Source: a virus
Virus record (IMG/VR): IMGVR_UViG_3300010356_002141
Direction: 5' to 3' (one strand)
Length of the DNA stretch: 38,912 nucleotides
The stretch's first letter is position 1; each line of letters opens with the position of its first letter. The notes below the pieces were generated by a model, which had not been told where the DNA came from, ran no database searches, and worked only from the letters and a program-made list of their open reading frames with translations. The translations under genes and the position numbers were made by a program. Of the stretch, positions 2,600 through 21,553 are shown piece by piece.

Positions 2600-2811
2600 A
2601 AACAATGGCATTTCTTCAAAGGAAGAGAGGCATTTTATTAATTAATAATGGAGGCGGCCTTAGCCTTACCTGCTAATCATTAATAGTAATTTCTCCCTCA
2701 TAACTTCGCTTTAAAAGATTTCTCCCGTTCTTGGAATTTAATTAATAAAATTTTAGGTTTTTACTTAAAGTTAATATTTTTTAACATTCAAAAAAAGAAA
2801 GGTAATTTAAA

Positions 2812-7374: not shown

Positions 7375-8387
7375 TGCCTTTGAATCCATTAATTTTTGAT
7401 AATAATTATTTTGCTAAGGTTCAAGCTAGGAATGACTTTATCAAAGCTGGTGATTTTGACAAACAGTTTACTACTATAGGCAGTTACATTAACCAGTTTA
7501 TAGTTCCGACATTAAATCAGTTAATCTCTAGTCAAGTACCTGGTTCTAATAACCCTATAGACGCAAATAAAAATCTTATTAACGTTGGTGACGGCACTAC
7601 TAAATGGGATTTTCCAAAAGCTGAATATATACCAGATTACTCATTATCTCTTAGCAAACTTGTACAAGCAAATGCAGGTTCAATACTTGCTACGGATAAT
7701 AATCAAATATTTAGAGTAGTTAGCCCTAACGGGAGTGGTCTTGCTTTAACAGCGAGAGTGCAAAATACCCCTATTTGGAAAAAAATAGTAGGTAATGAAT
7801 CAATTAGTAATAGAGTAATAACTAGTGATAAAATTGCTTTGCAAGGGCTTAGGTCTGAAAATTTTGGCATAAGTTTTGAAAGAACTTATATTAGAACAGT
7901 TATTAGAAATCAATTAATAGCAGCAAATACAATACCTAGTAGTAAAATAGCCAATGGAGCAATAACTGCTAATGTATTAAGTCAGTCAATGGTTAATTAT
8001 TTAATTGGAATAAATAATACACAAATTGCTCTAGGAGGTAATACTGCTCCTGATAATTTTATTACAAGCCATAAATACATAAATTATTATCCAGGTGCTG
8101 CTTCTCCTGTTGATCATACAAAAATAATACCTGGTTTTCAAATATGGCAGACTTTATATTGTGGAACTGAGGGTTATAAAGCATTTACAGTTCAAAATAT
8201 TGCTAATGGAGCAATTACTAGCCGAAATATTGCAGATGGTAGTTTAAATGGAGAACGTTTATTTTTTTCTCCTGATGGTAAATGGTTTAACAAAAGGACA
8301 CCTAGACCAATATCACAATTATTAGCTGATGGTTGTATAGGAGTACAAAATATACCTGTTAGCTGGAGACAAAAATTAGGGTTGTAA
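7374..8387 (+). CDS. Tail-fibre-like protein, paralog 1 of 3
   Basis: Its N-terminal ~75 aa is shared with the two downstream ORFs (YF..R.....A.DFD.QF....Y.N..I.P..N......NVGDGTTKW). It also carries degenerate I..(S/D)KIA.GAIT-type fibre repeats. Confidence 0.65.
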   Translation: MPLNPLIFDNNYFAKVQARNDFIKAGDFDKQFTTIGSYINQFIVPTLNQLISSQVPGSNNPIDANKNLINVGDGTTKWDFPKAEYIPDYSLSLSKLVQANAGSILATDNNQIFRVVSPNGSGLALTARVQNTPIWKKIVGNESISNRVITSDKIALQGLRSENFGISFERTYIRTVIRNQLIAANTIPSSKIANGAITANVLSQSMVNYLIGINNTQIALGGNTAPDNFITSHKYINYYPGAASPVDHTKIIPGFQIWQTLYCGTEGYKAFTVQNIANGAITSRNIADGSLNGERLFFSPDGKWFNKRTPRPISQLLADGCIGVQNIPVSWRQKLGL

Positions 8388-8388
8388 T

Positions 8389-9444
8389 ATGAGTATAGAT
8401 CAATTTACAAGAGATGCTGCATATTTCCAAGTCATGAGAGATCGCTCTATGATGATAAATGCTGAAGATTTGGATTTGCAATTTAATAATATGGTGGACT
8501 ATTTGAATACAAAGATAGTTCCTATTATAAACAACTTTGTACAAGGTCAATTTATAGGGGTGAATAACCCTGCTTTAGCTGGAGCATGCTTACTTAACGT
8601 TGGTGATGGCACTACTAAATGGGAAAGTATTAATTCTAATATTTTCCCTGATTATTCTATTGCAAGAGCAAAATTTAGCCCCGTTACTCCTTTTAGTATT
8701 ATAGCGACTACTCAAAATAGAAATTGGGTACCTCTACCATCTAATTTAAATGATAGTATATTATTTTCTAGAAATGCACGATCACCTGTTTGGCGTAAAG
8801 TAAATACTGGAGATATTGCTGATAAGACTCTAATAGGTGGTCATATAGCCTTAGGAGCGATAAAGATTGAACATTTAGGAGATGGACTTAGGGAAGCATT
8901 ATTTGCAGCTCCTAGAATAATATTAAATGAAAATATTGCTGAGGCTCAAATCACAGAGGGGAATTTACAAGATAATAGTTTGTCCGCAGAAAAATTAGAT
9001 CCTACATTACTTACAGCTAGACAAAATGGTATAACTGCATGGAATTTTGCTTGGCGTGATAACTCTATAGAAAATAGACATATAGCAGACCAAGTATTGA
9101 TTGGAGGACAAGGTCTTAATAGTGTACCAACTGCGAATGGGCCAAAATACGTTTGTTTGCAAATACGCTATTCTGCCCCTAATACTGATGATAATGCTAA
9201 TTATACATTTACATCTGATAATATTATTGATGAATCCATAACAGAAACTTTGATTGGTCCTACTCCTGGAGTTGGTTTTTACTCAAGATTGTTAAATGAA
9301 TATCAGTTTGAAAATGGTGCAATAGAGCCAAGACATATACAAAATCAAAGCGTTTGGCTTGCTGGTATTGGTCAGGCAAATAGAAATAATTTAATACCTG
9401 CATCAGCACTTGATCCAGTAATTAGATCAAAACTCGGGGTATAG
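8389..9444 (+). CDS. Tail-fibre-like protein, paralog 2 of 3
   Basis: Same conserved N-terminal module (LLNVGDGTTKWES) with a divergent C-terminal two-thirds. Confidence 0.65.
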   Translation: MSIDQFTRDAAYFQVMRDRSMMINAEDLDLQFNNMVDYLNTKIVPIINNFVQGQFIGVNNPALAGACLLNVGDGTTKWESINSNIFPDYSIARAKFSPVTPFSIIATTQNRNWVPLPSNLNDSILFSRNARSPVWRKVNTGDIADKTLIGGHIALGAIKIEHLGDGLREALFAAPRIILNENIAEAQITEGNLQDNSLSAEKLDPTLLTARQNGITAWNFAWRDNSIENRHIADQVLIGGQGLNSVPTANGPKYVCLQIRYSAPNTDDNANYTFTSDNIIDESITETLIGPTPGVGFYSRLLNEYQFENGAIEPRHIQNQSVWLAGIGQANRNNLIPASALDPVIRSKLGV

Positions 9445-10503
9445 ATGGCTGATATATTAAACAGGGATTTATCCTATTTTCGTACTTTGAGAAATAATAA
9501 AAGATTAATAGAGTCTTTTGATATTGATTCTCAATTTGCTACTGTTGCAGATTATTTAAATAATGAAATTATACCGGATGTTAATGCTCTAGTAGCTGGA
9601 GCATTGCCTGGAATCAATGGGAGTCCCGATTATTTTCTAACTAATGTTGGTGATGGTTCTGTTACTTGGAATACATTAAATAATGTTATCGTTGATAGTA
9701 CAATTGCATCTACTAAACTGGAGAAACCACAGAACAATGGAAAAGTTTTAGTCTCCAATAACGCAGGACAATTGGATTTAGCATCTGGTCCCACCTATGC
9801 TAACATGGTACTTACCTATAGAAATGGTGATGTCCCAGAGTATAGGTTTATAAATACTGTTAATATTGAAGATAGGGCTATTACTTATGCAGATATTGCA
9901 AATGGTTCAATAATTAGAGAGCATCTGAATCAGGAAATATTAGATATAATAGATGCTGCTGTTCCTAATGAAAATATAGCAGAGACGTTAAATATTACAG
10001 GTAATAATTTTAATGATTTATCTATTACAACAGATAAATTTGTCCCTAATACTATTACTACATTTAATAAACTTGGCGTAATCCCTAATATTTTGCCAGA
10101 TTTTCCTGCTAATGAGAGTTTGTATTACTCAAAAATTATTTTAAGAAGACATATAAAAAATGGAACTATAACACCTAATAAAATAAAACCTTATACTATT
10201 GGATCATTGCATTTTAACAAGGTTAAATGTATTACAAAAAATAAACTGGCTACTGGGATTATAAATGATACATTTCTGCGGTTAAAACCTGGACAAGAAT
10301 ATGCTATGTATTCCAATGATTCTACTAACAGAACATTACCTTTTACAGCTAGGATGTTATCGCCTAATTTTCGTGTGCAAAGACAGCATTTAGTTGTAGC
10401 AAATACAGATCCTTATGCTGTAAAAGAATTGCATCCTATAGGAGCTAAAGATTTTGAGGACAAGGTATACCTAGCTTTGAGAAGATTTGGAATTACGGGG
10501 TGA
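9445..10503 (+). CDS. Tail-fibre-like protein, paralog 3 of 3
   Basis: Same conserved N-terminal module (LTNVGDGSVTWNT) with a divergent C-terminus. Confidence 0.65.
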   Translation: MADILNRDLSYFRTLRNNKRLIESFDIDSQFATVADYLNNEIIPDVNALVAGALPGINGSPDYFLTNVGDGSVTWNTLNNVIVDSTIASTKLEKPQNNGKVLVSNNAGQLDLASGPTYANMVLTYRNGDVPEYRFINTVNIEDRAITYADIANGSIIREHLNQEILDIIDAAVPNENIAETLNITGNNFNDLSITTDKFVPNTITTFNKLGVIPNILPDFPANESLYYSKIILRRHIKNGTITPNKIKPYTIGSLHFNKVKCITKNKLATGIINDTFLRLKPGQEYAMYSNDSTNRTLPFTARMLSPNFRVQRQHLVVANTDPYAVKELHPIGAKDFEDKVYLALRRFGITG

Positions 10504-10864: not shown

Positions 10865-11815
10865 ATGGGTGGAGTAAGAAAGTGGTTTAGGCCTAAACAA
10901 CCGCCGCCGCCAATTAGGCAATTATCAGCATCAGAATCAGTAGCAAGTAAATATACACCTATTAATTTTGTAAGTATTATGGATGGCTTAATGGGTGATA
11001 AGCTGGATGTTGTTAGAGGGGTAGACGGCAAAATTAGCATGAACTTTACTAATCCAAATGGACGGACTAGCAGAATGTCTCCAGAGCGTAATATTGACGA
11101 AAGAGCCGTAGAGGTGATTGCTTTAAGCGAGGCTATGACAAGACTCGGCAATACTATTGAACAATTAGAGGCGACAAGCCCTTATTTAATACCACAAAAT
11201 CAGGAATTGATTAATAGTTACAGAACTGCTGTTAATAATGCTATGGATCGTGGTTTTGATTTCAAGCAGCAAGCTATAGATACAAAGCTTAGCAAAATGG
11301 GACTTACTAACAGTTCAACAGCTCTTGGCGTTCAAGTAGCACTGGCTCGTGAGAGAGCTAACGCCATGGCAGAAGCAGAGTTAAAACAAGCTGAACTTGC
11401 CCAAGGATTAAAACAACAGGCAATCGGTAATCTAATGAATAGAGGTAAGTTATTAGAAAGTCAGGCTAATACTGAACTTGCACGATTTGGCACTGAAACT
11501 GGAAATCAAATGCAGCTAAGAGGTCAGGACATTCAAAAGGAGATAGCACTATCAACTTTAGATCAGGACAGACAGAAGTTTTTAACCGCAGCAGGTATTG
11601 ATGCTTTAAATACTGGTAACCAACAATCAATTAATGCTGGAGCTGTTGATGCTAACCGAGTTGCTGGACTTAATAATGCGCAGTATCAAAGATATAGCAT
11701 GACTAGTAATCCAATGAGAGAAATGTTTGGAACATTTGGAGGTGCTCTTGCAGGAAATCTGGGAACTAGCTTTGCTAATAAATTTTCTAATAAACTTTTT
11801 GATAATAAAGGGTAA
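10865..11815 (+). CDS. Internal virion / ejection-like protein 1 (Gln/Ala-rich)
   Basis: 316 aa, coiled-coil and Q-rich. It is the first of three consecutive large low-complexity proteins at the end of the structural operon, as in P22/T7-type podoviruses. Confidence 0.4.
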   Translation: MGGVRKWFRPKQPPPPIRQLSASESVASKYTPINFVSIMDGLMGDKLDVVRGVDGKISMNFTNPNGRTSRMSPERNIDERAVEVIALSEAMTRLGNTIEQLEATSPYLIPQNQELINSYRTAVNNAMDRGFDFKQQAIDTKLSKMGLTNSSTALGVQVALARERANAMAEAELKQAELAQGLKQQAIGNLMNRGKLLESQANTELARFGTETGNQMQLRGQDIQKEIALSTLDQDRQKFLTAAGIDALNTGNQQSINAGAVDANRVAGLNNAQYQRYSMTSNPMREMFGTFGGALAGNLGTSFANKFSNKLFDNKG

Positions 11816-11817
11816 TA

Positions 11818-13197
11818 ATGAAGTCAACAGGATATAAAGAATCTTTAAATCAATATCAGGATTTAGTAAATCAACCAACTTTTGCGGATTACTTGGGTAA
11901 TGCTTTCTCTAAAGTAGGGAGTCAACCAGCTATGGGAGAAGCGCAAAGAATGTCTAATGCAATGCTTTCTGGTATGGGTGCTGGTATTTCTGGCGCAGCA
12001 GCAGAGGAAAGGAGAGAAAAGTTATCACCAATGCTTGAGCAAGCTGGGCGTATTACGGCAAAAGCAGCTGAACTTGAAGCGCAAATGCAAGAAGCAGAAC
12101 AAAATAGATTAAAAATAACCCAATTTATGAAACAGTCTGCTGTTCCTATTGCTCAGTTATCGCAAGCATCTTTAGCTGGCGATAGACCAGCAAGTAATGA
12201 ACTAGCTAAGGGAATATACCTAAATTTCAAACAACAAGCCGAAGACCCTAGTATGGGGGATTTTGATCATTACCATAATGGAGTTATTTACTATCACAAC
12301 CTTGAGACTGGGGCTATAGAGGGTGAAAATGTAATTGGTTTAATGTATCAAGCAGGAATTGACCCTGTTAGTATATGGGGACAGGATGCTCCTATGATAG
12401 AAGCGGGATTATCCCCTGGAGCTAAAAAGAATTATGAAGATTCCGAGAAAATGCGTCAGTTAGAGATGGAGGGAAAAAGAGCAGATGTTAATTTAAAACA
12501 AGCTCATGCTGGAGTATATCAGCAACAGGCTAATCAGATTCAGAACGAAATGCAAGCTCCTAAACCTAAATATAGTGAGCCAGTAATGAATAAGCTTATC
12601 GAAACAAATCAGAACTGGGTTAATAGTCTTGATAAAGAACAACAAACACTTGAGACTCAAAGTAATGCTTATAAACAAATAGCAAATTTAATATCTAGAG
12701 AAAAAGAAGCCCTTGGTAGAGCTGGTAGTGGTGTAATAAAAATGGCGCAAAGAGCTGTTAATAAGTCTGGAACGGAAAGCGAGAAAAATCAAGCATTAAT
12801 AGAATTATATCAACAACCATTAATGGCGGGGATAAAACAGATGTTTGCGGGGACTACTTCTGATCGTGATGTTGCTACTTTTATTGCTGGATTACCATCA
12901 CTTGATAAAAACCCAGATGCAGCGATTCAGGTAGCTTTAGAGCGAGCGGCTGGGCTTGATAACCAAATACAAAAAAATAATTTAACTCGAGATGTATTAG
13001 AAAATGATTTTGGTTATAGTGAACCTTACAATTCTCTAGCAGTACAAAATAGAGTTAAGGAACGATTTAAACCTGCAACAGCTAATACTGGGGTTGTTAC
13101 TATGGCAGCTCCTGATGGGAGTACAAGACCTGTTCCAGCAGCTCAAGTAGAATATTGGAAAAGCAAAGGGGCTAAGATAATTGATGAGCAAAAATAA
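11818..13197 (+). CDS. Internal virion / ejection-like protein 2
   Basis: 459 aa, Q/A/E-rich and tightly packed in the operon. Confidence 0.4.
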   Translation: MKSTGYKESLNQYQDLVNQPTFADYLGNAFSKVGSQPAMGEAQRMSNAMLSGMGAGISGAAAEERREKLSPMLEQAGRITAKAAELEAQMQEAEQNRLKITQFMKQSAVPIAQLSQASLAGDRPASNELAKGIYLNFKQQAEDPSMGDFDHYHNGVIYYHNLETGAIEGENVIGLMYQAGIDPVSIWGQDAPMIEAGLSPGAKKNYEDSEKMRQLEMEGKRADVNLKQAHAGVYQQQANQIQNEMQAPKPKYSEPVMNKLIETNQNWVNSLDKEQQTLETQSNAYKQIANLISREKEALGRAGSGVIKMAQRAVNKSGTESEKNQALIELYQQPLMAGIKQMFAGTTSDRDVATFIAGLPSLDKNPDAAIQVALERAAGLDNQIQKNNLTRDVLENDFGYSEPYNSLAVQNRVKERFKPATANTGVVTMAAPDGSTRPVPAAQVEYWKSKGAKIIDEQK

Positions 13198-15148
13198 TTT
13201 CTGGGCGGAATTTGATAATTCTTCTGAAAATCAACAAACTACAAATAATTTCTGGGCAGAGTTTGATAATCCACAAGAAACAGCTGGAATAAATGAACCT
13301 AGTATTGGTCAAAGAATAGCATCGGGGGCAAAGGCAGTAGCAGCTGGAGTAGGGGGAGCAATACCTGATACATTAAGTCTTGCTTATAATTTACCCGTAA
13401 TGGCTCAAAATGCACAAGTTGCCGCTGGTAATTATCAGGCAAACCCTTATGCTTTTGATTTTGCACCCGCTGAGGAAATGACTGCTCCTGCTCCTCTTAT
13501 TCCATCAGCGACAGAAGCTATTGATCAAGGCATTGATATTGCTACAGGCGGGTATACAACAACTCCAGAAGATCAAAAATATATTAATGAGGGACTAAAA
13601 ACTGGTGCATCATTTCTAACTGGTGGAGGAGTTGCAAAAACTGCTCAAGGAGGAATAGCTAAACTTGGTAACATTATTGGCAATACCAGTCCTCTACAAG
13701 CTGCTGGAGCTGCTGCAATGGGCGGGACTACTTCCTATTTAGCTGATCAGGGAGCATCGACTGGCGAAGCTCTAGGCGGTGGGCTTGCTGCTAATCTAGC
13801 AGTAACAGGAACGCCTGCTTTAGCAAAAGGAGTTGGTGGGCTTGCTGGCCGTGCAGCTTTAACTGCTGTAGGCCTTGGTAAGAATAAACTGAATCTGGAA
13901 GCAGCAAAGGCAGCACAAGGATTGGATATTGCACTGCCAAAGGCAGCGGCAAGTGAGGGAAAAGCGATTGCCTTAGCTGATCAGTTTTTAAGTAAAACTC
14001 CTGTTGCAAGTGGTGTTATGAGCAAAAGATATTCAGACATGGCAGATAAAGTCATGAAAGAATTGGACAAAGCTTATGATAGTGCTTTGCCAGCAGCTGA
14101 GCGTGTTGGTGTTGAAGAAAAAATAAGACAGTTATATTTAAATGCTAGAGAATCATTACCTAATGAGGCTCAAATAGTACCCAGTAATGTAACTTCTGTT
14201 ACGGAGCAGATTAAGGCAGAACTTGCAAAATCTGCTTCTTTATCTGCTGGTGAGAAAAAAGTATTAAGTATAATTAATGACTATGAAGATAAGTTTGTGC
14301 CTATGGGCATTAAAAGAATTCCAAGCCCAATCGAGGATTTAGTTGCAAGTCAGGATTCTCTTGGCAAGGTTATAGACTGGAAAGATACTAGCGTAAATTG
14401 GCAAAAAGAGAAAAAAGCCGCTGGAATGGTTAAAAGGCTTTACAATGCAATTAGTAATGATCTTGAGCAATACGGCAAAACCAATCCTGAATGGTATAAT
14501 TATCAAAAGGAAGCAGATAAACTATTTACAAAACTTTCACGTAGAAAAGAGTTAGAAGAGATGTTTGGTGCAGTAGAAAATACTGCTACGGGTGAGATGT
14601 CCTATAATAGCTTGTCAAAAATACTTAATGATGAACAGAATAGAGCTAGATTACAGAAAATAACTAATCCAGAAACCTTTGATCGTCTAGACAAGCTTAG
14701 TAAAGTTGCTCGTGCGATGGCAATTAAAAATAAAAATATCCCGAATCCATCAGGGACTGCCGTAACGCAAAAAACCTTTGATCTCATATCAATTTTAACT
14801 GGAGCATCTGCGGTAGTTGCTCCTGAAAAAACAGCATTAGCAGTAATTGGTGGTTCTGGTCTTGCTCATTTATTAACTGATAAAAAAACATTGGATTTAG
14901 CTATTAAATTTGCAGAAACTCCTATTAATATTAATGCTGTGGAATTTGGAAAAAGAATGAAACAGATTACGGGTTATACTCCTGTTACTCTGCTTAGAGA
15001 AGCACAAAAACTTGAACAGGGCAAAGAAGAAAAGTCAAAACCGCAAGTAATGCCTAAACAACCAGAGAAGAAAGCACCTGCTTTTAATAAAACTATTGAG
15101 GATATGTATAATAATAAATCCATCAGGGGATTTATTGAAGCAAATTAA
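13184..15148 (+). CDS. Internal virion / ejection-like protein 3 (Gly/Ala-zipper hydrophobic segments; two N-terminal NNFWAEFDN repeats)
   Basis: 654 aa from the ATG at 13184 (the track start at 13181 is TTG). It has a G/A-rich membrane-like stretch and is the last gene of the rightward structural block. Confidence 0.45.
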   Translation: MSKNNFWAEFDNSSENQQTTNNFWAEFDNPQETAGINEPSIGQRIASGAKAVAAGVGGAIPDTLSLAYNLPVMAQNAQVAAGNYQANPYAFDFAPAEEMTAPAPLIPSATEAIDQGIDIATGGYTTTPEDQKYINEGLKTGASFLTGGGVAKTAQGGIAKLGNIIGNTSPLQAAGAAAMGGTTSYLADQGASTGEALGGGLAANLAVTGTPALAKGVGGLAGRAALTAVGLGKNKLNLEAAKAAQGLDIALPKAAASEGKAIALADQFLSKTPVASGVMSKRYSDMADKVMKELDKAYDSALPAAERVGVEEKIRQLYLNARESLPNEAQIVPSNVTSVTEQIKAELAKSASLSAGEKKVLSIINDYEDKFVPMGIKRIPSPIEDLVASQDSLGKVIDWKDTSVNWQKEKKAAGMVKRLYNAISNDLEQYGKTNPEWYNYQKEADKLFTKLSRRKELEEMFGAVENTATGEMSYNSLSKILNDEQNRARLQKITNPETFDRLDKLSKVARAMAIKNKNIPNPSGTAVTQKTFDLISILTGASAVVAPEKTALAVIGGSGLAHLLTDKKTLDLAIKFAETPININAVEFGKRMKQITGYTPVTLLREAQKLEQGKEEKSKPQVMPKQPEKKAPAFNKTIEDMYNNKSIRGFIEAN

Positions 15149-15403
15149 ATAAAAATAATAAATAGCATCATAATATAATCTATAACTTTATCTAAGAATG
15201 GTGCAAGTTCCTGTCTTTCTAAAGATTGTTGCAATATTGGTCTAGTCCACAGCGTAAGTATCAGGATATAGATAATATGCTGTATTTTTATTTTTTGTTT
15301 AAATAACCTTTGTTTGATTACATAAACAATAATAAAACTTAAGATTTTTAAAAAAAGCACGTGCAAAAACTCTTATAAAGTTTTCGCAGGATTGCAACAT
15401 TAT

Positions 15404-15425
15404 AAAAAAAGCTTAATCTTTAAGC
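15404..15425 (-). terminator. Rho-independent terminator candidate for the leftward lysis operon
   Basis: The minus strand reads gcttaa-aga-ttaagc followed by a run of 7 T. Confidence 0.45.
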
Positions 15426-15466
15426 AAACTAAATGAACTATTTATGCCTTATAAGGTTGATAAGAG

Positions 15467-15501
15467 TTGCCCACATACTTATCTACAAAAGTTGTGGATA
15501 A
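15467..15501. promoter_or_regulatory. Cluster of three DnaA-box-like 9-mers (TTGCCCACA, TTATCTACA, and a perfect TTATCCACA on the minus strand)
   Basis: String match to the TTATCCACA consensus. All three lie within 35 bp of the convergent intergenic region. Confidence 0.3.
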
Positions 15502-15690
15502 TTAATTGTTAGAATTGTTATTAGGTTCTTTTGCCATAAGAAATACTAGCCCACCAATTATTTCGGCTATTAAGGCAAGCTGATTGTTTTCTAGAAACAT
15601 CAATCTAGTAATTACTAGTAATATAAAAATGTTTTTTAAAAAGGAGTGTTGCGTTGTAAATAATTCTAAAATTTTATGTAACCACTTCAT
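15502..15690 (-). CDS. Small membrane protein (last gene of the lysis block)
   Basis: 62 aa with hydrophobic segments. Its start overlaps the stop of the upstream gene. Confidence 0.5.
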   Translation of the reverse strand: MKWLHKILELFTTQHSFLKNIFILLVITRLMFLENNQLALIAEIIGGLVFLMAKEPNNNSNN

Positions 15691-15929
15691 TTGCTAAGCT
15701 CCTCCTTATAAACATAATATTTAATTTTAAATACATAGAGCTCGTTTAACCAGTTATTAAAATTATCACAGGATTTACGAGGAATACATATTTGCTTTAT
15801 TTCTTCTACAGCTTTTGAGTTAATTAATGGCATGTCTGGTAAATTTAATTTGGGTGATTTACTTGTTTTTATCTGACAACCGCTCAAGATTAGTATCAAG
15901 ATCAGTAGGTTTAACGCTTTCGCTAACAT
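15687..15929 (-). CDS. Outer-membrane lipoprotein, o-spanin candidate
   Basis: Signal peptide with lipobox LILILSGC. Small and Pro/Cys-containing. Its start lies inside the 3' end of the i-spanin candidate in another frame. Confidence 0.55.
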   Translation of the reverse strand: MLAKALNLLILILILSGCQIKTSKSPKLNLPDMPLINSKAVEEIKQICIPRKSCDNFNNWLNELYVFKIKYYVYKEELSK

Positions 15930-16092
15930 CTAATACCTTTTGTTGAATATTAATTACTTTGTCTTTTTCAAAGTTATTTTCTACAAGTTCTTTATTGTCC
16001 AAGGTTAATGTTTTATTTCTTCTTAAAATATAAACAGTAAAAAAAACTCCAATTGTAAGTAAGATTTCTTTAAAATAAGTTATAAAAAACAT
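15859..16092 (-). CDS. i-spanin candidate (N-terminal TM plus charged coiled-coil)
   Basis: 77 aa with TM segment ILLTIGVFFTVYIL followed by a charged helix. It overlaps the lipoprotein gene by about 70 nt (overlapped spanin architecture). Confidence 0.5.
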   Translation of the reverse strand: MFFITYFKEILLTIGVFFTVYILRRNKTLTLDNKELVENNFEKDKVINIQQKVLDVSESVKPTDLDTNLERLSDKNK

Positions 16093-16093
16093 T

Positions 16094-16285
16094 TTAATAT
16101 TGGTTAATAATTTCTTGATTATTATTATTTTCCTGTTTTTGCTCTTTTTTCTTAGCTTGTTCTACAGTAGTTGGGGTCTCTGTTTTATTAAATATTTCAA
16201 TGGTAGGTGAGAAAAAATCATCACAAGCGATTAATAAACTAGTTACTATAAAAAAAATCCCAACAAATATTTTAAATTTATTCAT
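16094..16285 (-). CDS. Small lipoprotein
   Basis: Signal peptide with lipobox SLLIAC and a K/E/N-rich tail. Confidence 0.55.
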   Translation of the reverse strand: MNKFKIFVGIFFIVTSLLIACDDFFSPTIEIFNKTETPTTVEQAKKKEQKQENNNNQEIINQY

Positions 16286-16286
16286 T

Positions 16287-16595
16287 TTAAATCTCCGTAA
16301 TTGTAATAGGATAGATTGCTTCTACCATTTTCTTTTTAACAATATACATATCTGTTTTTACTCCCTTAACATCTTCAATAGTAATTTCCCCATTTGTCCA
16401 AAATACAAGGAAATCACAAACATATTTAACACCAGCTTGTAAATGAAATGGGACTTGTCTTAAAAAAAACAGGATTTCACCGCTGTTTTGTAATATTTTA
16501 AGCTGTTGATATCTTTTATGTTCTTTTTTAGAGGCAAATTTAATTCCGTCAGCTTCGCAAGGTTTAGCCCTGAATTTATGCCTTAAGATTGCCAT
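16287..16595 (-). CDS. DUF1064-family protein (predicted PD-(D/E)XK Holliday-junction-resolvase-like nuclease)
   Basis: Matches the family pattern: FASKKEHKRYQQLKILQNSGEI..L..QV.F.L....KYVCDF...W.NGEITIEDVKGVKT..Y..KKKM. Confidence 0.75.
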   Translation of the reverse strand: MAILRHKFRAKPCEADGIKFASKKEHKRYQQLKILQNSGEILFFLRQVPFHLQAGVKYVCDFLVFWTNGEITIEDVKGVKTDMYIVKKKMVEAIYPITITEI

Positions 16596-17038
16596 AATTC
16601 CAACTCTGCTTTTCTTCTTTTGTATAAACCATTAGAGAACTCGCTATCTATATTAACAACACCTCTAACCTTGCTAAAAAATTCATCAGCAGCTCCGCTG
16701 TAGTCTCCAGCATTTAATTTTCTAAGACCAGTGCTTATTTTAAAATTATATGCCCCCCAGTTGTATATAAGACTTACTAGAGCATCAAATTGACCTTGAC
16801 TTATGTTTACCTTTACAGATGAATTTATAGCGTTCTCTGCTTCTTTAACGTCGTCTTTTAATAGTTGCTCTGCTTTTTCTCTAGTCATACGAGGAGCAGC
16901 TTTTGTTAAAGCAACTAATTTTTGATCTATAACATGACCATAGCCTATAGTTGGTCTCCCAGCAGGACACATATAAACATAATCTCTAAATCCCTCAAAT
17001 TGTTTGATTAGATCAAGTCCCTTTTCTGATACTTTCAT
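16583..17038 (-). CDS. Endolysin, GH24 phage lysozyme
   Basis: The segment LIKQFEGFRDYVYMCPAGRPTIGYGH is the classic T4/lambda-type lysozyme N-terminus. The gene has an ATGA overlap with the upstream TM protein gene. Confidence 0.9.
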   Translation of the reverse strand: MKVSEKGLDLIKQFEGFRDYVYMCPAGRPTIGYGHVIDQKLVALTKAAPRMTREKAEQLLKDDVKEAENAINSSVKVNISQGQFDALVSLIYNWGAYNFKISTGLRKLNAGDYSGAADEFFSKVRGVVNIDSEFSNGLYKRRKAELELWQS

Positions 17039-17220
17039 TTTTCAGGACTTTGTGGGGTTAAATCAATATTTATGCCTGTTTGTTCTTCTATGACTTTCTC
17101 TGATATCTCTTCAACAGGATTGTCATGATACCAAAAATAAGCCGATAACAGACCAATAATTATGGCCGCTATGATAATAAAATATCTGTTAAGAATAATG
17201 ATTTTTAATAATTCTTTCAT
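17035..17220 (-). CDS. Holin-like single-TM protein
   Basis: 61 aa with one TM segment and an acidic tail, immediately upstream of and overlapping the endolysin gene. Confidence 0.5.
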   Translation of the reverse strand: MKELLKIIILNRYFIIIAAIIIGLLSAYFWYHDNPVEEISEKVIEEQTGINIDLTPQSPEK

Positions 17221-17316
17221 GAATCACGCTTTTTATAGTTAACAAATTGCGAGACTTTTTAAAGAATTATTAAATTGAATAAAAAAGGTATCGGGGATAT
17301 TACTATCCCTAATTCT

Positions 17317-17329
17317 TACTCGCAAGGTT
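17317..17329 (-). promoter_or_regulatory. Exact copy of motif AACCTTGCGAGTA (minus strand, sense for the lysis genes)
   Basis: The plus strand reads tactcgcaaggtt. The copy lies in the intergenic region about 97 nt upstream of the holin-like ATG, downstream of a tgttatact -10-like element. Confidence 0.6.
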
Positions 17330-17411
17330 CTGTATTGTTAAATACCCTGTGAGTATAACATATTATTGATTTTATTTAAAACTAAATTTTGAAAACGTTA
17401 GTATTTATACA

Positions 17412-17726
17412 CTAACTATTATCTCCTGATAATAACACAGCTAAATCATGGTCAGCTTGTATTTGCTCTAGTTCTTCTTGGCTTTTAAATGTTGATTCAA
17501 TGCTTATATTATTATTTTCACTAGATAATACGGGGGTAACAGGTGTTGGTTGGTTATTAATAATATCATCTAAAGCATTTAACCCTTTTTTTACTGCAAA
17601 TATCCCAAGACCTATATAAAACCCAGGACTAAGAACTGCTGCTACCAAACCTACGACATTTAATGCACTTTCTACAACTTTATCACCTAATTTTTGATCT
17701 GATTTATTTTTTGTTGTTTCTTTCAT
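17412..17726 (-). CDS. Membrane protein (possible holin/antiholin)
   Basis: 104 aa with hydrophobic core VVGLVAAVLSPGFYIGLGIFAV and a good SD (aaggaga). Confidence 0.4.
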   Translation of the reverse strand: MKETTKNKSDQKLGDKVVESALNVVGLVAAVLSPGFYIGLGIFAVKKGLNALDDIINNQPTPVTPVLSSENNNISIESTFKSQEELEQIQADHDLAVLLSGDNS

Positions 17727-17760
17727 AACATTATCTCCTTAAATATAATAAAAAGGTTTT

Positions 17761-17773
17761 TAGCTGCAAGGTT
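17761..17773 (-). promoter_or_regulatory. Motif variant AACCTTGCAGCTA (10/13), minus strand
   Basis: The plus strand reads tagctgcaaggtt. The copy lies between the 57-aa lipoprotein stop and the 104-aa gene. Confidence 0.45.
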
Positions 17774-17790
17774 CTTTTAAGGTTTCTTAA

Positions 17791-17964
17791 TTAAAAGCCA
17801 ACAGGATGAATTGTGTTTTGTGTAACACTATTACGTAAATCGTTAAGTCGTTGCTCTTTTATGTGTTTTTGTTTTTCTTCTTCGGTCATATTACAAGTAT
17901 GGCCACAACTGCAAAGAGTTAACATACACGTTATTATAGTAATAGAAATTTTAGCCTTGATCAT
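17791..17964 (-). CDS. Small lipoprotein (57 aa; not in the ORF track)
   Basis: Hand translation gives MIKAKISITIITCMLTLCSCGHTC... with a Cys-containing lipobox-like signal. It has a strong SD (ggaggt) 6 nt upstream. Confidence 0.6.
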   Translation of the reverse strand: MIKAKISITIITCMLTLCSCGHTCNMTEEEKQKHIKEQRLNDLRNSVTQNTIHPVGF

Positions 17965-17986
17965 TTTTTTACCTCCTTTTTAAATA

Positions 17987-18850
17987 TTATGCAGCTTCTA
18001 TACCTTGTGAATAATTATATTGCTTGTTGATGTATTCTATACAAGCTAGTTGCTTTTCCTCGCCTAAATCAGCAATACTTTCAACCCCTGCTTTGCTACA
18101 CCACTTGTTGATTATTTCACTTGGCACATTATACACTTTAATAAGTTCTATTAATTCAGCAAGTGTTTCGCTTTTTTCTGCTTCTATATTTTCAAGCACA
18201 GTGTCTAATTTTGAAACAATACTTTGGGATTTAGGCGTTATATTTTTAATTTCTATTTCAAGATCGTTAATATCTTTCCCCTCCATTTCCTCAGCTGTTG
18301 GATGCTGACTGACTATCTCAGGAAAAGCCTTACGTAAGGCTTGTGCCTCAGCACATTTTGCTATCTGTCCGTATGGTCTTTTTTGCCACATACTATTAGG
18401 CGTTGGAGTATCTTTTTTAGTGGCATAGTTTTCCAACCAGTATTCTTTAGCGGTAAACTCAACAATAGTATTATTTACTAGCTTTTTAACTGTTACCTTA
18501 CACCATTTAGGATAGGTAATGTCTACCCCGCCCAAATTACATGTAACATCTTCGCCAAACTCAGGCTCGCTTACACCTGCATATTGATTACTCCGTGCTG
18601 CCTGTATTCTATATAAACCAACCCCAGGCATAACTACGTCTTTATATTCATATCTACCAGTAAGAGAATTTTTTACATTCATTGGGACGATATGAACTGG
18701 TTTTTGCATAGGATCTAATTTTGCTGCCTTGCAATAATCAAGAACCATTTTTATACTTTCATCTTTTGCACCAGTATATAAGCTGTTTTTTAGTGCTGAC
18801 CATATATGCTGGTCAATTTCATTATTATTTGTTACTACTATATTGCTCAT
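17987..18850 (-). CDS. Single-strand annealing protein, RecT/Bet family
   Basis: KLDPMQKPVHIVPM and WQKRPYGQIAKCAEAQALRKAFPE resemble lambda Bet/RecT conserved blocks. The gene is adjacent to the YqaJ exonuclease gene. Confidence 0.8.
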   Translation of the reverse strand: MSNIVVTNNNEIDQHIWSALKNSLYTGAKDESIKMVLDYCKAAKLDPMQKPVHIVPMNVKNSLTGRYEYKDVVMPGVGLYRIQAARSNQYAGVSEPEFGEDVTCNLGGVDITYPKWCKVTVKKLVNNTIVEFTAKEYWLENYATKKDTPTPNSMWQKRPYGQIAKCAEAQALRKAFPEIVSQHPTAEEMEGKDINDLEIEIKNITPKSQSIVSKLDTVLENIEAEKSETLAELIELIKVYNVPSEIINKWCSKAGVESIADLGEEKQLACIEYINKQYNYSQGIEAA

Positions 18851-18858
18851 TTTCTACC

Positions 18859-19776
18859 TCACTTAATTAAAAATACTCTTGATTGCTTTGCGACATTGGC
18901 ATATTTCAAATACATTTCCTTTGCCTCTTCCTTGAACCTTTTAAGATCAAAGCATGACCTTGGAGCTGTATTTTTCCATGTAGCTATCACATTGCCGTTA
19001 TTATCTATAAGTACGTCGTAATCTCTCATAAACTCTTGAATCTCAACCTTTAACTTTTCAATAGTTTTTTGTATTTGTTCTTCTGACATTTTTGCTATTT
19101 TTAATTCTTCAAGTTTGGCAATTATATCATCTTGAGCTAATATTTCCTTATTATTGCTTTGCGGGAATAAATTAAACGTATCTCTAGTAGTAATACATTT
19201 AGGCGGTATCCTTTTTTCTATATGGTTATGCCAGAAATTAACGCCTATTTTGACTATTTTACCCTCTAAATCTTTATTCTTATTATAAGTGTATATTCTA
19301 AAATCTTGACCACCAATTAAAACTGCTATATCAATTTTACGAGCACCAGAGATTGCGGCATAATGAGCAACTTGCACCAGATATGACTCAGGGATTTGGT
19401 CAGTCCCTAAGTCTCCCCATTCTTTAGCCTTGGTAAAACCAGCTGTCTTACATTCTAAAATATGTGTTCCATTATTTACCCATCGATCAACCCAGCGATC
19501 AATATTAGCTCCTAAAAATTTATGTTCAGGGTGGTATATTGTATTTGGCTCTATTTCAATATCATAACCAGTAATTTGTGCATATTCCTTGGCAACAACA
19601 TCCTCTAAAAGAGTTCCCCACCTCATCGCAGCATTAGTCTCTTCGCTAATATCATCACTAGTTTTATCAAGATATACATCAAGAGCAGTCCTATAAGGAT
19701 TAAGACCGCAAATAGCGGCTAAATCAGTGCCACCCAAGTAATTCTTACGCTCTCTTAACCATTCTTGCTTGTTCAT
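18859..19776 (-). CDS. YqaJ-like (lambda Exo-type) recombination exonuclease
   Basis: N-terminus EWLRERKNYLGGTDLAAICGLNPYRTALDVY is typical of the YqaJ viral recombinase family. Confidence 0.85.
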   Translation of the reverse strand: MNKQEWLRERKNYLGGTDLAAICGLNPYRTALDVYLDKTSDDISEETNAAMRWGTLLEDVVAKEYAQITGYDIEIEPNTIYHPEHKFLGANIDRWVDRWVNNGTHILECKTAGFTKAKEWGDLGTDQIPESYLVQVAHYAAISGARKIDIAVLIGGQDFRIYTYNKNKDLEGKIVKIGVNFWHNHIEKRIPPKCITTRDTFNLFPQSNNKEILAQDDIIAKLEELKIAKMSEEQIQKTIEKLKVEIQEFMRDYDVLIDNNGNVIATWKNTAPRSCFDLKRFKEEAKEMYLKYANVAKQSRVFLIK

Positions 19777-20423
19777 ACGGCTACTCTTCTTGAATACATA
19801 TAATCGCTATACATAAGGTCTCTGCTCTTGCGCTCACTTTCTTTATAATTTTCTATTTCCTGTTCTAATGCTACTGGGTCATATTCGGATATTTCCCAGT
19901 AAATTCCAAGGTCTTTAGCCTCCTCAAGTAGCATTTCGTACTGGTCTATCTTATAGCTTAGCTCTAAAAAATTAACATTGTAACAATCATAAGGAATGTT
20001 ATATTTATCAGCTCTTGCCATTTGTTCTTTAATAAAAGCTTTTCTAGCTCTAGCTCCAATTCTTGTAAAAGTTTCCTTGGCAGAATCAGATAACTCTACT
20101 TTGTCTTCTTTAGATTCATGGAATTTAGGAATTTCTGAAATATGATCAGGCAACGCTTTCTGGTTATTTCTTTGAAAATAAACTTTGCCAGCTTCCTTTA
20201 ATGCTTCCAGATTAGAAAGCAGTTGCAGAGCCTGTTTAGGCATTATTACTTTATTTGTCATTGATAACTCGCAAGAAGTAGATTTATATGTTATTGTATC
20301 ACACTCCGCATCTTTGTTCAAATTTTTAGCGGTTAAAATATCACGGGCGAGAGCTAATCCTTCTAGTTGTTTTAAAAAAGTCTCTTGCGGTTTGCTGTCA
20401 TTATTTGTAATCTGTAAGCTCAT
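19773..20423 (-). CDS. Hypothetical protein (first gene of the leftward recombination operon)
   Basis: 216 aa, with an SD (ggagg) and an ATGA-type overlap with the exonuclease gene. Confidence 0.7.
   Translation of the reverse strand: MSLQITNNDSKPQETFLKQLEGLALARDILTAKNLNKDAECDTITYKSTSCELSMTNKVIMPKQALQLLSNLEALKEAGKVYFQRNNQKALPDHISEIPKFHESKEDKVELSDSAKETFTRIGARARKAFIKEQMARADKYNIPYDCYNVNFLELSYKIDQYEMLLEEAKDLGIYWEISEYDPVALEQEIENYKESERKSRDLMYSDYMYSRRVAV
20266..20278 (-). promoter_or_regulatory. Motif variant CTTCTTGCGAGTT (core CTTGCGAGT exact), minus strand
   Basis: The plus strand reads aactcgcaagaag. The copy lies inside the 216-aa CDS in sense orientation. Confidence 0.35.
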
Positions 20424-20461
20424 TTTTATTCCTCCGTTTAAAGATGAAGTGTGTTATATTG

Positions 20462-20497
20462 GCTAGCGATTTGTCCTGCGAAAGAAAAATCGCTAGC
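20462..20497. repeat. Perfect 11-bp inverted repeat gctagcgattt / aaatcgctagc with a 14-nt spacer
   Basis: Read directly from the sequence. It lies in the leader of the leftward operon, 39 nt from the ATG at 20423. Confidence 0.8.
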
Positions 20498-20513
20498 TTG
20501 TAACCCACAAATT

Positions 20514-20547
20514 AGAGCTTAGGTTTTACGGCTTAGGCTCTTTTTTT
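20514..20547 (+). terminator. Plus-strand intrinsic-terminator-like hairpin (10-bp stem with two G-U pairs, then 7 T) inside a minus-strand transcription unit
   Basis: Reads agagcttagg-ttttacgg-cttaggctct followed by ttttttt. Confidence 0.4.
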
Positions 20548-20573
20548 ATGCCTTCATGGATTACTTATAAAAG

Positions 20574-20602
20574 AGTATATCTTTAGTAAGTGAATTAGTC
20601 AA
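20574..20602 (-). promoter_or_regulatory. Sigma70-like promoter, TTGACT-17 nt-TATACT (leftward early promoter candidate)
   Basis: The minus strand reads ttgact aattcacttactaaaga tatact. The predicted leader to the ATG at 20423 is about 140 nt. Confidence 0.6.
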
Positions 20603-20760
20603 TATATTTTTTTAAAATATTCTATTTATTTTTACTTTGTTGTAGAAATGTGAGATAAAAATTACGGGTGAGAGTTCTTAATATTATGAGAAATATAGAT
20701 AGGGTAGGGTATAGTAAATAATAATTGATTACTAAAAGAAAGAATGATAGTTTAGTAAAG

Positions 20761-20826
20761 AGGTAAGCGAACGTCTGCTACATGCAGGGTGTCTTTGCGG
20801 TTTACCGACTTGGTCCTAGCTTACCT
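20761..20826 (-). other. 66-nt structured element closed by the 8-bp stem aggtaagc/gcttacct, directly after the stop of the 130-aa gene (terminator or processing site candidate)
   Basis: Inverted repeat read directly; inner hairpin ctgc-tacat-gcag; T-rich sequence follows on the minus strand. Confidence 0.4.
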
Positions 20827-20832
20827 TAACTT

Positions 20833-21225
20833 TTAGCTTGTTTCCTTATTCTTATCAAACAATTTAATCAAATATCTGTAAGCTAATATTAACCATGTCC
20901 ATACTAGACTCATAATAAAGATGTCTTTTAAAAACGGATATGTAGGCCAATATGATATAATTTTACTTGGATTAAAATCACCTTGCGCATCAAATTCTTC
21001 CCAAAAATTATTATCGCTTTTAATTTTAGGTTTTTTATACTTATCAAACTTAGAACAACGAACTCTAATCCCTTCAAACTTATTTTTTCCTATACAAAAC
21101 TCTTCAACTTGGGTTTTTATCTGGTGTATTTGAAATGAGCTAATCAATGTATCAAAAGAGAAAAATACAACTGTAGGGGCAATAATAAAAAAACAGATAA
21201 AATTAAAAATTCTCTTTATTTTCAT
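20833..21225 (-). CDS. Two-TM membrane protein downstream of the repressor-like gene (superinfection-exclusion candidate)
   Basis: 130 aa with N- and C-terminal TM segments. Its central loop carries the NNFWEEFD motif. Confidence 0.45.
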   Translation of the reverse strand: MKIKRIFNFICFFIIAPTVVFFSFDTLISSFQIHQIKTQVEEFCIGKNKFEGIRVRCSKFDKYKKPKIKSDNNFWEEFDAQGDFNPSKIISYWPTYPFLKDIFIMSLVWTWLILAYRYLIKLFDKNKETS

Positions 21226-21226
21226 G

Positions 21227-21553
21227 TTATATTTGAGATTTAATTGTTTTAGTTTTTATATGTAATTCTAAAAGTTCAAACAGCTTTAATTTATTAATCT
21301 CAAATAAATAACAAGAAGAATTTTGAGGTTTTGATTTTATAATCAAGTCTGTTTTTAACATTTTAGTTAGAGAAGGATATACCACTTGTTTTACTAAAGA
21401 AGATGCTTGCACAATACTCTCAGCTGGCACTGGTTTATCAAACATACTAAGTGCTTTTAATATCTTTTTTGGATTCTTAGTCAATAGAGGGTAGTTATCT
21501 ATTGCTTCAAACAAATTTTCCTTATTATCAAAATCAGTCATTTTTCTTGTCAA
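21227..21553 (-). CDS. Winged-helix DNA-binding protein, repressor candidate
   Basis: 108 aa. The segment ILKALSMFDKPVPAESIVQASSLVKQVVYPSLTKMLKTDLIIKS fits a wHTH layout. The gene is transcribed divergently from the rightward early genes. Confidence 0.45.
   Translation of the reverse strand: MTRKMTDFDNKENLFEAIDNYPLLTKNPKKILKALSMFDKPVPAESIVQASSLVKQVVYPSLTKMLKTDLIIKSKPQNSSCYLFEINKLKLFELLELHIKTKTIKSQI

Follow-up and report, generated by a model that had tools for sequence, protein, structure and literature searches.

A peptide array resembling ejection-protein N termini in a two-helix membrane protein of a Rickettsiales phage, and its possible role in superinfection exclusion

The question raised by this locus is why a virion protein and a membrane protein of one small phage genome share a peptide of eight residues. 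The DNA analyzed was a viral stretch of 38,912 nucleotides (nt) with a G+C content of 33%, IMG/VR record IMGVR_UViG_3300010356_002141, which is called the window here. One of its genes encodes a terminal ejection-like (internal virion) protein of 654 amino acids (aa; positions 13184 to 15148, plus strand, ATG at 13184), which starts with MSKNNFWAEFDN, a 9-aa spacer, and then NNFWAEFDN. Another encodes a 130-aa two-helix hairpin membrane protein (20833 to 21225, minus strand), in which D71 precedes NNFWEEFD and the peptide lies between two hydrophobic helices. A preliminary description of the sequence had read the peptide as a short linear interaction motif, used by the ejection protein to dock on a host or phage partner and displayed by the membrane protein as a decoy that blocks incoming genomes. 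Comparison with relatives strengthened the decoy idea beyond one motif, in that the loop of the hairpin appears to be an array of several types of ejection N-terminal peptide. We consider it somewhat probable that such an array of mimic peptides, held in the periplasm by an inner-membrane hairpin, provides superinfection exclusion or plasmid-encoded defence.

Because its first and last 127 nt (1 to 127 and 38786 to 38912) are identical, the window was taken as a circularly permuted complete genome with a unit length of 38,785 nt. The DNA is ~85% identical to that of the Megaira polyxenophila phage MAnkyphage_25.80 (OP381185), whose host is a Rickettsiales endosymbiont within the alga Cryptomonas (PMC10925606). 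The podophage to which the window belongs has a genome of ~38.8 kb, and its host is the Rickettsiales endosymbiont Candidatus (Ca.) Megaira. The Ca. Megaira polyxenophila chromosome CP113867 holds a closely related prophage or prophage remnant, and phages of the window type are therefore probably temperate.

All three copies of the peptide have the positions and sequences given in the preliminary description. Two copies of NNFWAEFDN occupy residues 4–12 (13193 to 13219) and 21–29 (13244 to 13270) of the 654-aa protein, both on the plus strand and identical to one another at 25 of 27 nt; NNFWEEFD occupies residues 72–79 of the 130-aa protein (20989 to 21012, minus strand). No other NNFW or FWxEFD was found in the six frames of the window. 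The claim that such a match in a single genome is unlikely to arise by chance did not hold. In 150 shuffled proteomes of the window genome there was a mean of 1.45 inter-protein pairs matching at 7 of 8 residues, and 71% of the shuffles had at least one. At the DNA level the peptide is identical at 21 of 24 nt between the 654-aa and 130-aa genes, with differences such as codon bias would give. Since a 7-of-8 match within the window is unremarkable, the case was made from relatives instead.

Homologues of the 654-aa protein numbered 108 in a search of 5.8 billion proteins, and ~50 more ejection-like loci came from scanning viral and genome collections; some of these are in metagenome-assembled genomes (MAGs) labelled Rickettsiaceae, Rickettsiales, and Ca. 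Finniella. At the start of nearly every full-length member a short peptide occurs twice in tandem: a 6-mer self-match (5/6 or better) was present within the first 80 aa of 126 of 155 members, and in at most 16 of 155 for control segments. Both tandem NFW copies are kept in ~75 homologues of the 654-aa protein, down to ~40% identity, and copy 2 reads NNFWEEFD in many of them, for example that of MAnkyphage_25.80. The peptide type varies by lineage, and the two copies in one ejection protein are always of the same type. The types found were NNFW[AE]EFD or FWEELD, LxQY[EK]R, FNPxEHGA, DEFxQFGG, SKW[ED]xY, SKFEGLGG or SLEGLRxKP, SKFDKYK or SKYDKYR, VFQGLDV, NFW[ED]GTDAEII, and a longer unit of ~30 aa, IRVxxPDG...IP...A...G. 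Most types directly follow Met-Ser-Lys (MSK) and have a common hydrophobic-x-x-hydrophobic core. Alignment of the homologues' N termini showed the peptide core to be conserved and its flanks variable. In an AlphaFold2 (AF2) model the 654-aa protein is all-alpha, with helices rich in G and A and a confident core at residues ~280–510; residues 1–39 are predicted to be disordered (predicted local distance difference test score, pLDDT, ~30), with a four-residue helix on the motif.

Two distant lineages (L038, ~9842, and L042, ~9824) are without the usual peptides and without the H unit described below. Their terminal protein opens with other tandem repeats (MSDEELLREL twice, or the coiled-coil-like EKQALES/EKAALES), and the upstream C terminus is helical and charged, which may represent another sort of junction module. 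An unrelated 38-kb viral contig (L094, 37% GC) encodes at ~8277–8297 a protein that starts with MSLPKNFWEEFDRRLDAKLEP and continues into a coiled-coil resembling the window's CCDC90/DUF1640-like 81-aa protein; the peptide was seen once there, about as often as chance would give.

The homologues of the 130-aa protein form a family of 34 clusters at 90% identity, with 12 representatives at 50% identity among 1.84 billion proteins; a scan of the genome collection gave no match. The ends of these proteins are strongly conserved (MKIKRIFNFICFF... and ...W.WLILAYRYLIKLFD). In the window, helix 1 is at about residues 6–29 (21139 to 21210) with the motif MKIKRIFNFICFF..., and helix 2 is at about residues 100–119 (20869 to 20928) with the motif W.WLILAYRYL; both are transmembrane (TM) segments encoded on the minus strand. 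Most members are bare hairpins of 57–79 aa; complete phage contigs (L012/L056, L062) have them, and so does a Megaira plasmid (P0136, CP113874). In ~11 sequence variants a long loop is inserted at the turn, holding two to five different cassettes of ejection N-terminal types, and the bare and array forms have the same conserved helices. AF2 modeling of the 130-aa protein from the family alignment gave helices at residues 2–49 and 96–129 (pLDDT 72–84) and a loop of lower confidence (pLDDT 53–67) with a short helix at residues 74–80, on FWEEFDA. In these models a conserved short peptide thus lies in a disordered N terminus of one protein and in a low-confidence loop of the other, which agrees with the proposed character of a short linear motif.

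The bare hairpins have positive charges on the N-terminal tail (MKIKR) and on the C-terminal tail (RYLIKLFD...) and zero or one in the turn. Applied to these charges, the positive-inside rule puts both tails inside. The hairpin, with its two long hydrophobic helices, is predicted to be an inner-membrane protein with an N-in/C-in topology, whose turn and arrays would face the periplasm. The 130-aa protein would fit a class II holin in size, in having two TM segments, and in predicted topology, but we rate this candidate unlikely on account of its location outside the lysis cassette; its gene is 3.8 kb from the lysozyme gene, upstream of which the cassette has its own 61-aa membrane protein. A comparison of the hairpin family profile (hhalign) with P22 SieA found no homology (probability 0.3%), and five hairpin members had no match in PADLOC-DB v2 at E <= 0.1.

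Four cassettes were recognized in the window loop (member P0001), in the order KFEGIRVR, SKFDKYKKPK, NNFWEEFD, and a truncated DFNPS, all on the minus strand. KFEGIRVR (residues 49–56, 21058 to 21081) is of the xEGLG/R type; it matches ISKNKFEGL of P0101 at 7 of 9 positions and also resembles the SLEGLRxKP N termini of L045 and L053. SKFDKYKKPK (residues 58–67, 21025 to 21054), of the KFDKY type, matches the MSKFDKYKAPK N termini of ~25 distant ejection-like members, including one in a Rickettsiales MAG (L078). NNFWEEFD is the type of the phage itself. DFNPS (residues 83–87, 20965 to 20979) is a remnant of the FNPxEHGA type; aligned with the DNA of L058 and L060, it shows a truncating deletion of 36 nt. 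The intact cassette, SFNPYEHGAIPINQNN, is found in P0002 and P0004.

Other members have other combinations. P0002 has two ~30-aa units followed by DEFSQFGGY, SNFWEEFD, and SFNPYEHGAIP; P0004 has SNFWEEFD and FNPYKHGAIP; P0003, P0005, P0007, P0008, and P0123 combine DLSQYKR, FDPLEHGAR, DKWEKY or DWSQYERKKP, and SKFEGLRTRP or SKFDKYKKPK; and P0143 has FNPLEHGARPVQ, SKSKWAQYEV, PSMSKNSFWEEYD, and IGGYEIPV. The P0143 cassette PSMSKNSFWEEYD still has the initiator MSK of an ejection protein, a sign that the very 5' end of such a gene was the source of the copy. NFWEEFD itself is kept in four hairpin members besides that of the window (P0002, P0004, L060, and P0143).

The specificity of these resemblances was examined in several ways. 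When all six-frame open reading frames (ORFs) of 75 loci were scanned with regular expressions for the peptide types, two or more matches were found only in ejection N termini, which had two of one type, and in hairpin loops, which had two to four different types. When exact 6-mers from ejection residues 1–50 served as the library, array hairpins ranked 1–4 and 6–8 among the 3,182 other unique ORFs, and they were never selected by four control libraries from segments of the ejection body; the library test was also run with 7-of-8 matches. A looser 5-of-6 test against ~2700 words was too permissive to discriminate and was replaced. For all nine loops compared, the best ungapped local score was higher against ejection residues 1–75 (49–78) than against windows of the body (26–46). 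In 2.9 million viral contigs NFWEEFD occurred six times, four of them in this ejection family; the other two occurrences were isolated, at about the chance expectation. Retention in homologues of both families suggests that the shared peptide is a functional and transferable module and not a coincidence. The relationships between these sequences and their modularity are direct observations, and we have very little doubt that the shared peptides are copied, selected cassettes.

What would such a peptide bind? The gene directly upstream of the 654-aa gene encodes a 459-aa penultimate ejection-like protein (11818 to 13197, plus strand), overlaps the 654-aa start by 14 nt, and is syntenic in relatives. 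Its last 34 aa (VVTMAAPDGSTRPVPAAQVEYWKSKGAKIIDEQK; 13093 to 13194, plus strand), which we call the H unit, are the proposed partner of the N-terminal peptides. The unit is ~30 aa long, with the pattern hydrophobic-x-M-x-x-P-D-G-x4-V-P-x6-A-x3-G-x-x-V-V-E, and it aligns without gaps with the N-terminal units of the IRVxxPDG type and with the two long P0002 cassettes (28 units aligned). Among 4,599 ORFs, 55 of the 56 C-terminal matches to the H unit were in proteins encoded immediately upstream of an ejection-like gene.

Peptide type and H unit change together. Between proteins whose bodies are ~80% identical, where the peptide is swapped from the NFW to the LxQYER type, the final ~40 codons of the 459-aa gene upstream are replaced as well. 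The H-unit subtype tracks the peptide type across distant lineages too: L016, with a body ~33% identical, has both ...YFDVPA...YPDLVRQ and DLSQYKR in common with L080 and L082. At 51 unique junctions the H unit was at the upstream C terminus only in 44, at the downstream N terminus only in 5, at neither in 2, and at both in none. In three of the five reversed junctions (L085, L089, and L055) the upstream protein has a peptide-like C terminus; these ends read NPWYEQFGGIAAQ, NPWASLGRKVQ, and SPFGGRWKKVQ, each directly before the stop codon. This complementarity is observed directly, and the two modules stay split across the junction in either orientation, as would be expected of interaction partners. 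The proposal that the ejection protein docks on a host or phage partner is thereby narrowed. The partner is probably phage-encoded, namely the H unit that ends the preceding ejection-like protein, and not a host protein.

The H unit had no significant match among solved structures. A weak whole-sequence hit of the H-unit profile to the EF-hand protein ALG-2 (E 0.002) was rejected as probably spurious; each matched stretch taken singly had E > 1, and the loop spacing is not that of an EF-hand. Several terminal proteins have H units in other arrangements: that of L085 (6001 to 8022; also L086) has one at the N terminus and one at the extreme C terminus (residues 644–672, SIRMIGPDGTVAMIPPLMVKSAQKMGARL), and those of L089 and L055 have two N-terminal copies. 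By eye, the N terminus of P22 gp16 (L090, 485 to 2314) resembles a reversed H unit, although the H-unit hidden Markov model finds none there; P22 gp20 (L091, 1070 to 2485) ends in ...SKSGIKFTVE. In L087 an IS605-family element (Y1 transposase and an OrfB/TnpB-like gene; 1788 to 3822) lies directly upstream of the ejection-like gene, of whose upstream partner no more than a 95-aa ORF is left; with its additional ParB and HU genes, this contig may be a degraded prophage on a plasmid.

The hairpin gene lies in a setting that suits an accessory function. Its ATG is 1 nt past the stop codon of a 108-aa repressor-like gene (21227 to 21553, minus strand), which is upstream of it, co-oriented with it, and divergent from the replication genes. 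The 108-aa product is a putative winged helix-turn-helix protein; it is annotated as a 'transcription regulator' in MAnkyphage, and we obtained only sub-threshold winged helix-turn-helix matches. A promoter-like site upstream of it (21598 to 21569) was not significant relative to shuffles. The slot between the repressor-like gene and the operon of 216-aa, YqaJ, and RecT genes is variable. It corresponds to 20424–20832 in the window, 17237–18352 in L001, 17798–19962 in L080, and 20055–21612 in L082; in MAnkyphage and the Megaira prophage it holds unrelated membrane proteins, and elsewhere it holds SocA/Panacea proteins, ParE/YoeB toxins, toxin-antitoxin genes, and M78-peptidase genes. The 400-nt gap in the slot of the window contains a palindrome with a 12-bp stem (20514 to 20541).

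Turnover of the loop was evident between close relatives. Repressor-like genes 94% and 99% identical to that of the window are followed by a five-cassette array in L058 and by a bare hairpin in L061, and at the DNA level the flanks of the hairpin genes align while their loops differ by cassette-sized indels. In the sub-lineage of P0003 and P0007, single cassette positions are exchanged between otherwise near-identical proteins. The genes of this sub-lineage are downstream of a DnaA-N-like gene, on elements that have no virion genes, that carry ParA/ParB, a resolvase, a PIF1 helicase, and the autotransporter RickCE, and whose nucleotide identity to plasmids of Ca. Megaira polyxenophila reaches 91%. 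The presence of the array on elements without an ejection protein, and of non-self types within it, argues against a role in assembly of the phage's own virion. These genomic contexts are plain from the sequences, and both the location in a variable accessory slot, right behind the repressor-like gene, and the plasmid-like relatives seem to fit the defensive or exclusion role that had been proposed for the membrane gene. On the Megaira plasmid pPCS148 (L084, AP017966; 5991 to 9051), a Mod-type DNA methylase gene follows the DnaA-like gene on the opposite strand; the position after the DnaA-like gene, which is the P0003-type array site in metagenomic relatives, is a second variable slot able to hold defence-related genes.

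We propose that in a normal infection the tandem N-terminal peptides would bind the H unit at the C terminus of the preceding ejection-like protein, and that this binding would link the pair while the DNA conduit is being built through the periplasm and inner membrane. Each loop cassette would reproduce the N-terminal module carried by the terminal ejection-like protein of one related phage type, and the window array would represent four types, including its own NNFWxEFD. Displayed on a dead-end membrane anchor, the array would capture the H unit of an incoming phage, type by type, and block completion of the conduit. Under this exclusion model the many peptide types, the exchange of cassettes, and the multi-type arrays would follow from arms-race pressure, and the decoy would also account for the two identical copies per ejection protein, the position next to the repressor, and the plasmid-like carriers. 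A further possibility, which we put forward tentatively, is that the loop serves as a heritable 'catalogue' of enemy phages at the protein level, in which cassettes taken from the ejection-gene 5' ends of phages encountered earlier are gained, lost, and swapped, each capping the matching conduit junction module, and from which a phage might escape by exchanging H unit and peptide as one cassette.

Several considerations weigh against the exclusion model. The host is an unculturable endosymbiont, and we infer the exclusion role. Identification of the 459- and 654-aa proteins as ejection proteins comes from gene position and from fold matches with low template modeling (TM) scores. The predicted topology depends on a charge bias, and the long loops are themselves rich in K and R. 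Peptide and H unit lie within ~100 nt of each other, so that linkage alone would explain their transfer together, although not their reciprocity; the reciprocity comprises five junctions in ~3–4 lineages, of which L014 and L087 have no clear upstream peptide. The hairpin family is small. Its helices are conserved without arrays, and the scaffold must therefore have a function of its own. Among sequenced Megaira plasmids in PLSDB there is no hairpin with an array and only one bare hairpin.

The same observations bear on other explanations. Both proteins might separately have recruited a common host envelope factor, such as a periplasmic or inner-membrane protein of Rickettsiales, with no decoy involved. 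The loose hydrophobic-x-x-hydrophobic core after MSK in all types would suit one degenerate groove, and the hairpin scaffold is conserved on its own; however, arrays mix types and never repeat one, the peptide type is exchanged together with the phage-encoded H unit, and the cassettes were evidently copied from the 5' ends of ejection genes, MSK included. Recognition appears to be type-specific because the two copies in an ejection protein are of one type and the arrays are mixed, and we judge a shared host factor unlikely. An array that senses ejected proteins in the periplasm, with the hairpin triggering abortive infection by damaging the membrane or a lysis-timing response like that of the T4 antiholin RI, would have a recognition logic identical to that of the decoy, and a small two-helix hairpin is similar in size and shape to holin/antiholin-like and RexB-like effectors. 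Yet the 130-aa gene is outside the lysis cassette (~15.5–17.2 kb), the family also occurs on plasmid-like elements without lysis genes, and PADLOC gave no match; a sensor strikes us as quite improbable.

The remaining alternatives fare worse against the sequences. Neutral recombination could have left functionless 5' fragments of ejection genes in a tolerant turn, as might be suspected from loops that vary by indels between near-identical flanks, from the truncated cassette of the window, and from family members that are frameshifted or fused fragments (P0010 and P0011). But the insertions are of one sequence kind only, always in frame and in sense and with the core intact, in ~11 variants and on two scaffold sub-lineages (phage-type and plasmid-type), and no other ORF among 4599 collects these peptides, which makes debris very unlikely. 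The peptide chemistry is similar to that of adaptor- or Atg8-binding motifs. A phage of an intracellular symbiont with ankyrin and patatin genes might accordingly direct aromatic/acidic motifs, of the WxxF kind or like LC3-interacting regions, at the protist host; the carriers, however, are a virion-internal protein and the loop of a bacterial inner-membrane protein, neither exposed to the host cytosol, and many unrelated types paired with a phage-encoded H unit do not suit a single eukaryotic target. We hold this to be extremely unlikely. Chance similarity of an eight-residue low-complexity peptide in an AT-rich genome is given practically no credence: 7-of-8 matches are indeed expected within the window (P ~0.7), and the 21/24 nt identity includes differences of the codon-bias kind, but the regular-expression scan, the 6-mer library ranks, and the loop scores effectively refute it. 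The decoy model explains the type-specific arrays and the complementary junctions together better than any of these rivals does.

The closest known counterpart of the proposed system is SieA of P22, a prophage-encoded protein of the inner membrane that keeps DNA from being injected and whose genetic target is a pair of ejection proteins, gp20 and gp16 (PMC10883804; Leavitt et al. 2024). P22, like the window phage, is a short-tailed phage with a P22-type portal, and gp20 and gp16 have the gene positions of the 459- and 654-aa proteins. SieA differs in being 164 aa long, with more membrane segments and without copies of target sequences, whereas the hairpin loop is an array of peptides derived from the target. 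The two SieA types compared did not differ in phage target specificity (PMC10883804), whereas type-by-type specificity is predicted for the hairpin array. The authors of that study, which concerns the best-studied short-tailed case, were unable to explain how recognition persists despite extreme ejection-protein diversity, and escape from exclusion by HK97 and TP-J34 maps to the tape-measure or conduit protein (PMC10883804). T4 Imm, HK97 gp15, TP-J34 Ltp, and Tuc2009 Sie2009 are likewise small phage-encoded envelope proteins that act at DNA entry. The bare hairpin of 57–79 aa is close in size to some small exclusion proteins such as Imm, although homology to them is not expected. To our knowledge, none of these four has sequence copied from a target phage protein or varies in a modular, array-like manner.

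Decoys and docking epitopes of other kinds offer looser parallels. In the integrated decoys of plant nucleotide-binding leucine-rich repeat receptors, a defence protein includes a copy of the interface sequence of an attacker's target as bait; these belong to another kingdom, with another scaffold and signalling, and the hairpin bait comes from the attacker's own protein junction, with several strung together. Colicins and filamentous phages have translocation domains with a disordered N terminus whose short epitopes dock on periplasmic Tol/TonB proteins during import. There the partners are host Tol/Ton proteins, whereas the candidate partner here is a phage-encoded H unit, and the peptides contain no Tol/TonB-box-like sequence. 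The HXS system also uses a periplasmic, repeat-bearing effector at DNA entry, HxsA, whose HxS repeats arrest phage DNA entry (PMC13128918). It differs in its radical S-adenosylmethionine maturation enzymes, its proposed electrostatic binding of DNA, and repeats that are not phage-derived, and it has no genes in common with the locus described here.

The remaining genes of the window are those of a short-tailed phage with eukaryote-facing cargo. They encode a P22-type portal (P22_portal, E 1e-39), a capsid protein, an SU10-type adaptor, a T7-type fibre N-domain, a terminase, a patatin, and an ankyrin-repeat protein. The ankyrin-repeat gene (26070 to 26375) and the patatin-like phospholipase gene (32676 to 33716), which is between the terminase and tail-fibre genes, recall the cargo of Wolbachia phage WO. 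The tail genes at 7374–8387, 8389–9444, and 9445–10503 (337, 351, and 352 aa) are adjacent paralogues; LINVGDGTTKWD, common to the 337- and 351-aa proteins at equal residue positions, is the sole other 7-of-8 inter-protein match in the proteome. The virion module ends with the 654-aa gene, which follows the portal, capsid, adaptor, and tail genes. The trio of 316, 459, and 654 aa after the tail genes is in the same position as P22 gp7/gp20/gp16 (229/471/609 aa); its first member (10865 to 11815, plus strand) is assigned by position and had no family match in Pfam, PHROG, or NCBIfam. The same three databases gave no usable match for the 130-, 459-, and 654-aa proteins. Foldseek matched the 654-aa model to long podophage proteins named 'Injection protein' or having SLT or LT_GEWL domains (probability ~1.0, TM-scores ~0.2) and to nothing in the PDB, and hhalign with a 61-sequence profile found no homology to P22 gp16 (probability 1%). 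The lysis cassette (15502 to 17220, minus strand) has genes for the 61-aa single-TM protein, the lysozyme (16583 to 17038; PF00959 in relatives), a DUF1064 protein, and overlapping spanin-like products, one an N-terminally anchored protein (15859 to 16092) and the other a lipoprotein-like protein with LSGC (15687 to 15929).

Among the papers open to search, none described tandem N-terminal peptides in these proteins, the H unit, or exclusion proteins with arrays of target-derived peptides. Membrane-bound superinfection exclusion at DNA entry is a known kind of system; the principle itself would be new if the array truly catalogues enemy types. How membrane-bound exclusion proteins recognize the injection machinery is largely unexplained, and this locus offers an explicit, testable recognition code. 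Both the peptides and the H unit are of a size that allows direct biochemistry without culture of the host, and the P22 gp16/gp20 resemblance, if real, would let the junction idea be tested in a model phage. If the proposal is correct, exclusion would work by mimicry with modular, array-like specificity; consecutive ejection proteins would be joined by a lock-and-key of H unit and tandem peptides that could be examined in many podophages; and mosaic hypervariability at the termini of ejection proteins would be the signature of an arms race. Active conflict between phages, and between plasmids and phages, would then be taking place within obligate intracellular symbionts, Ca. Megaira and other Rickettsiales, in which phage biology is almost unexplored.

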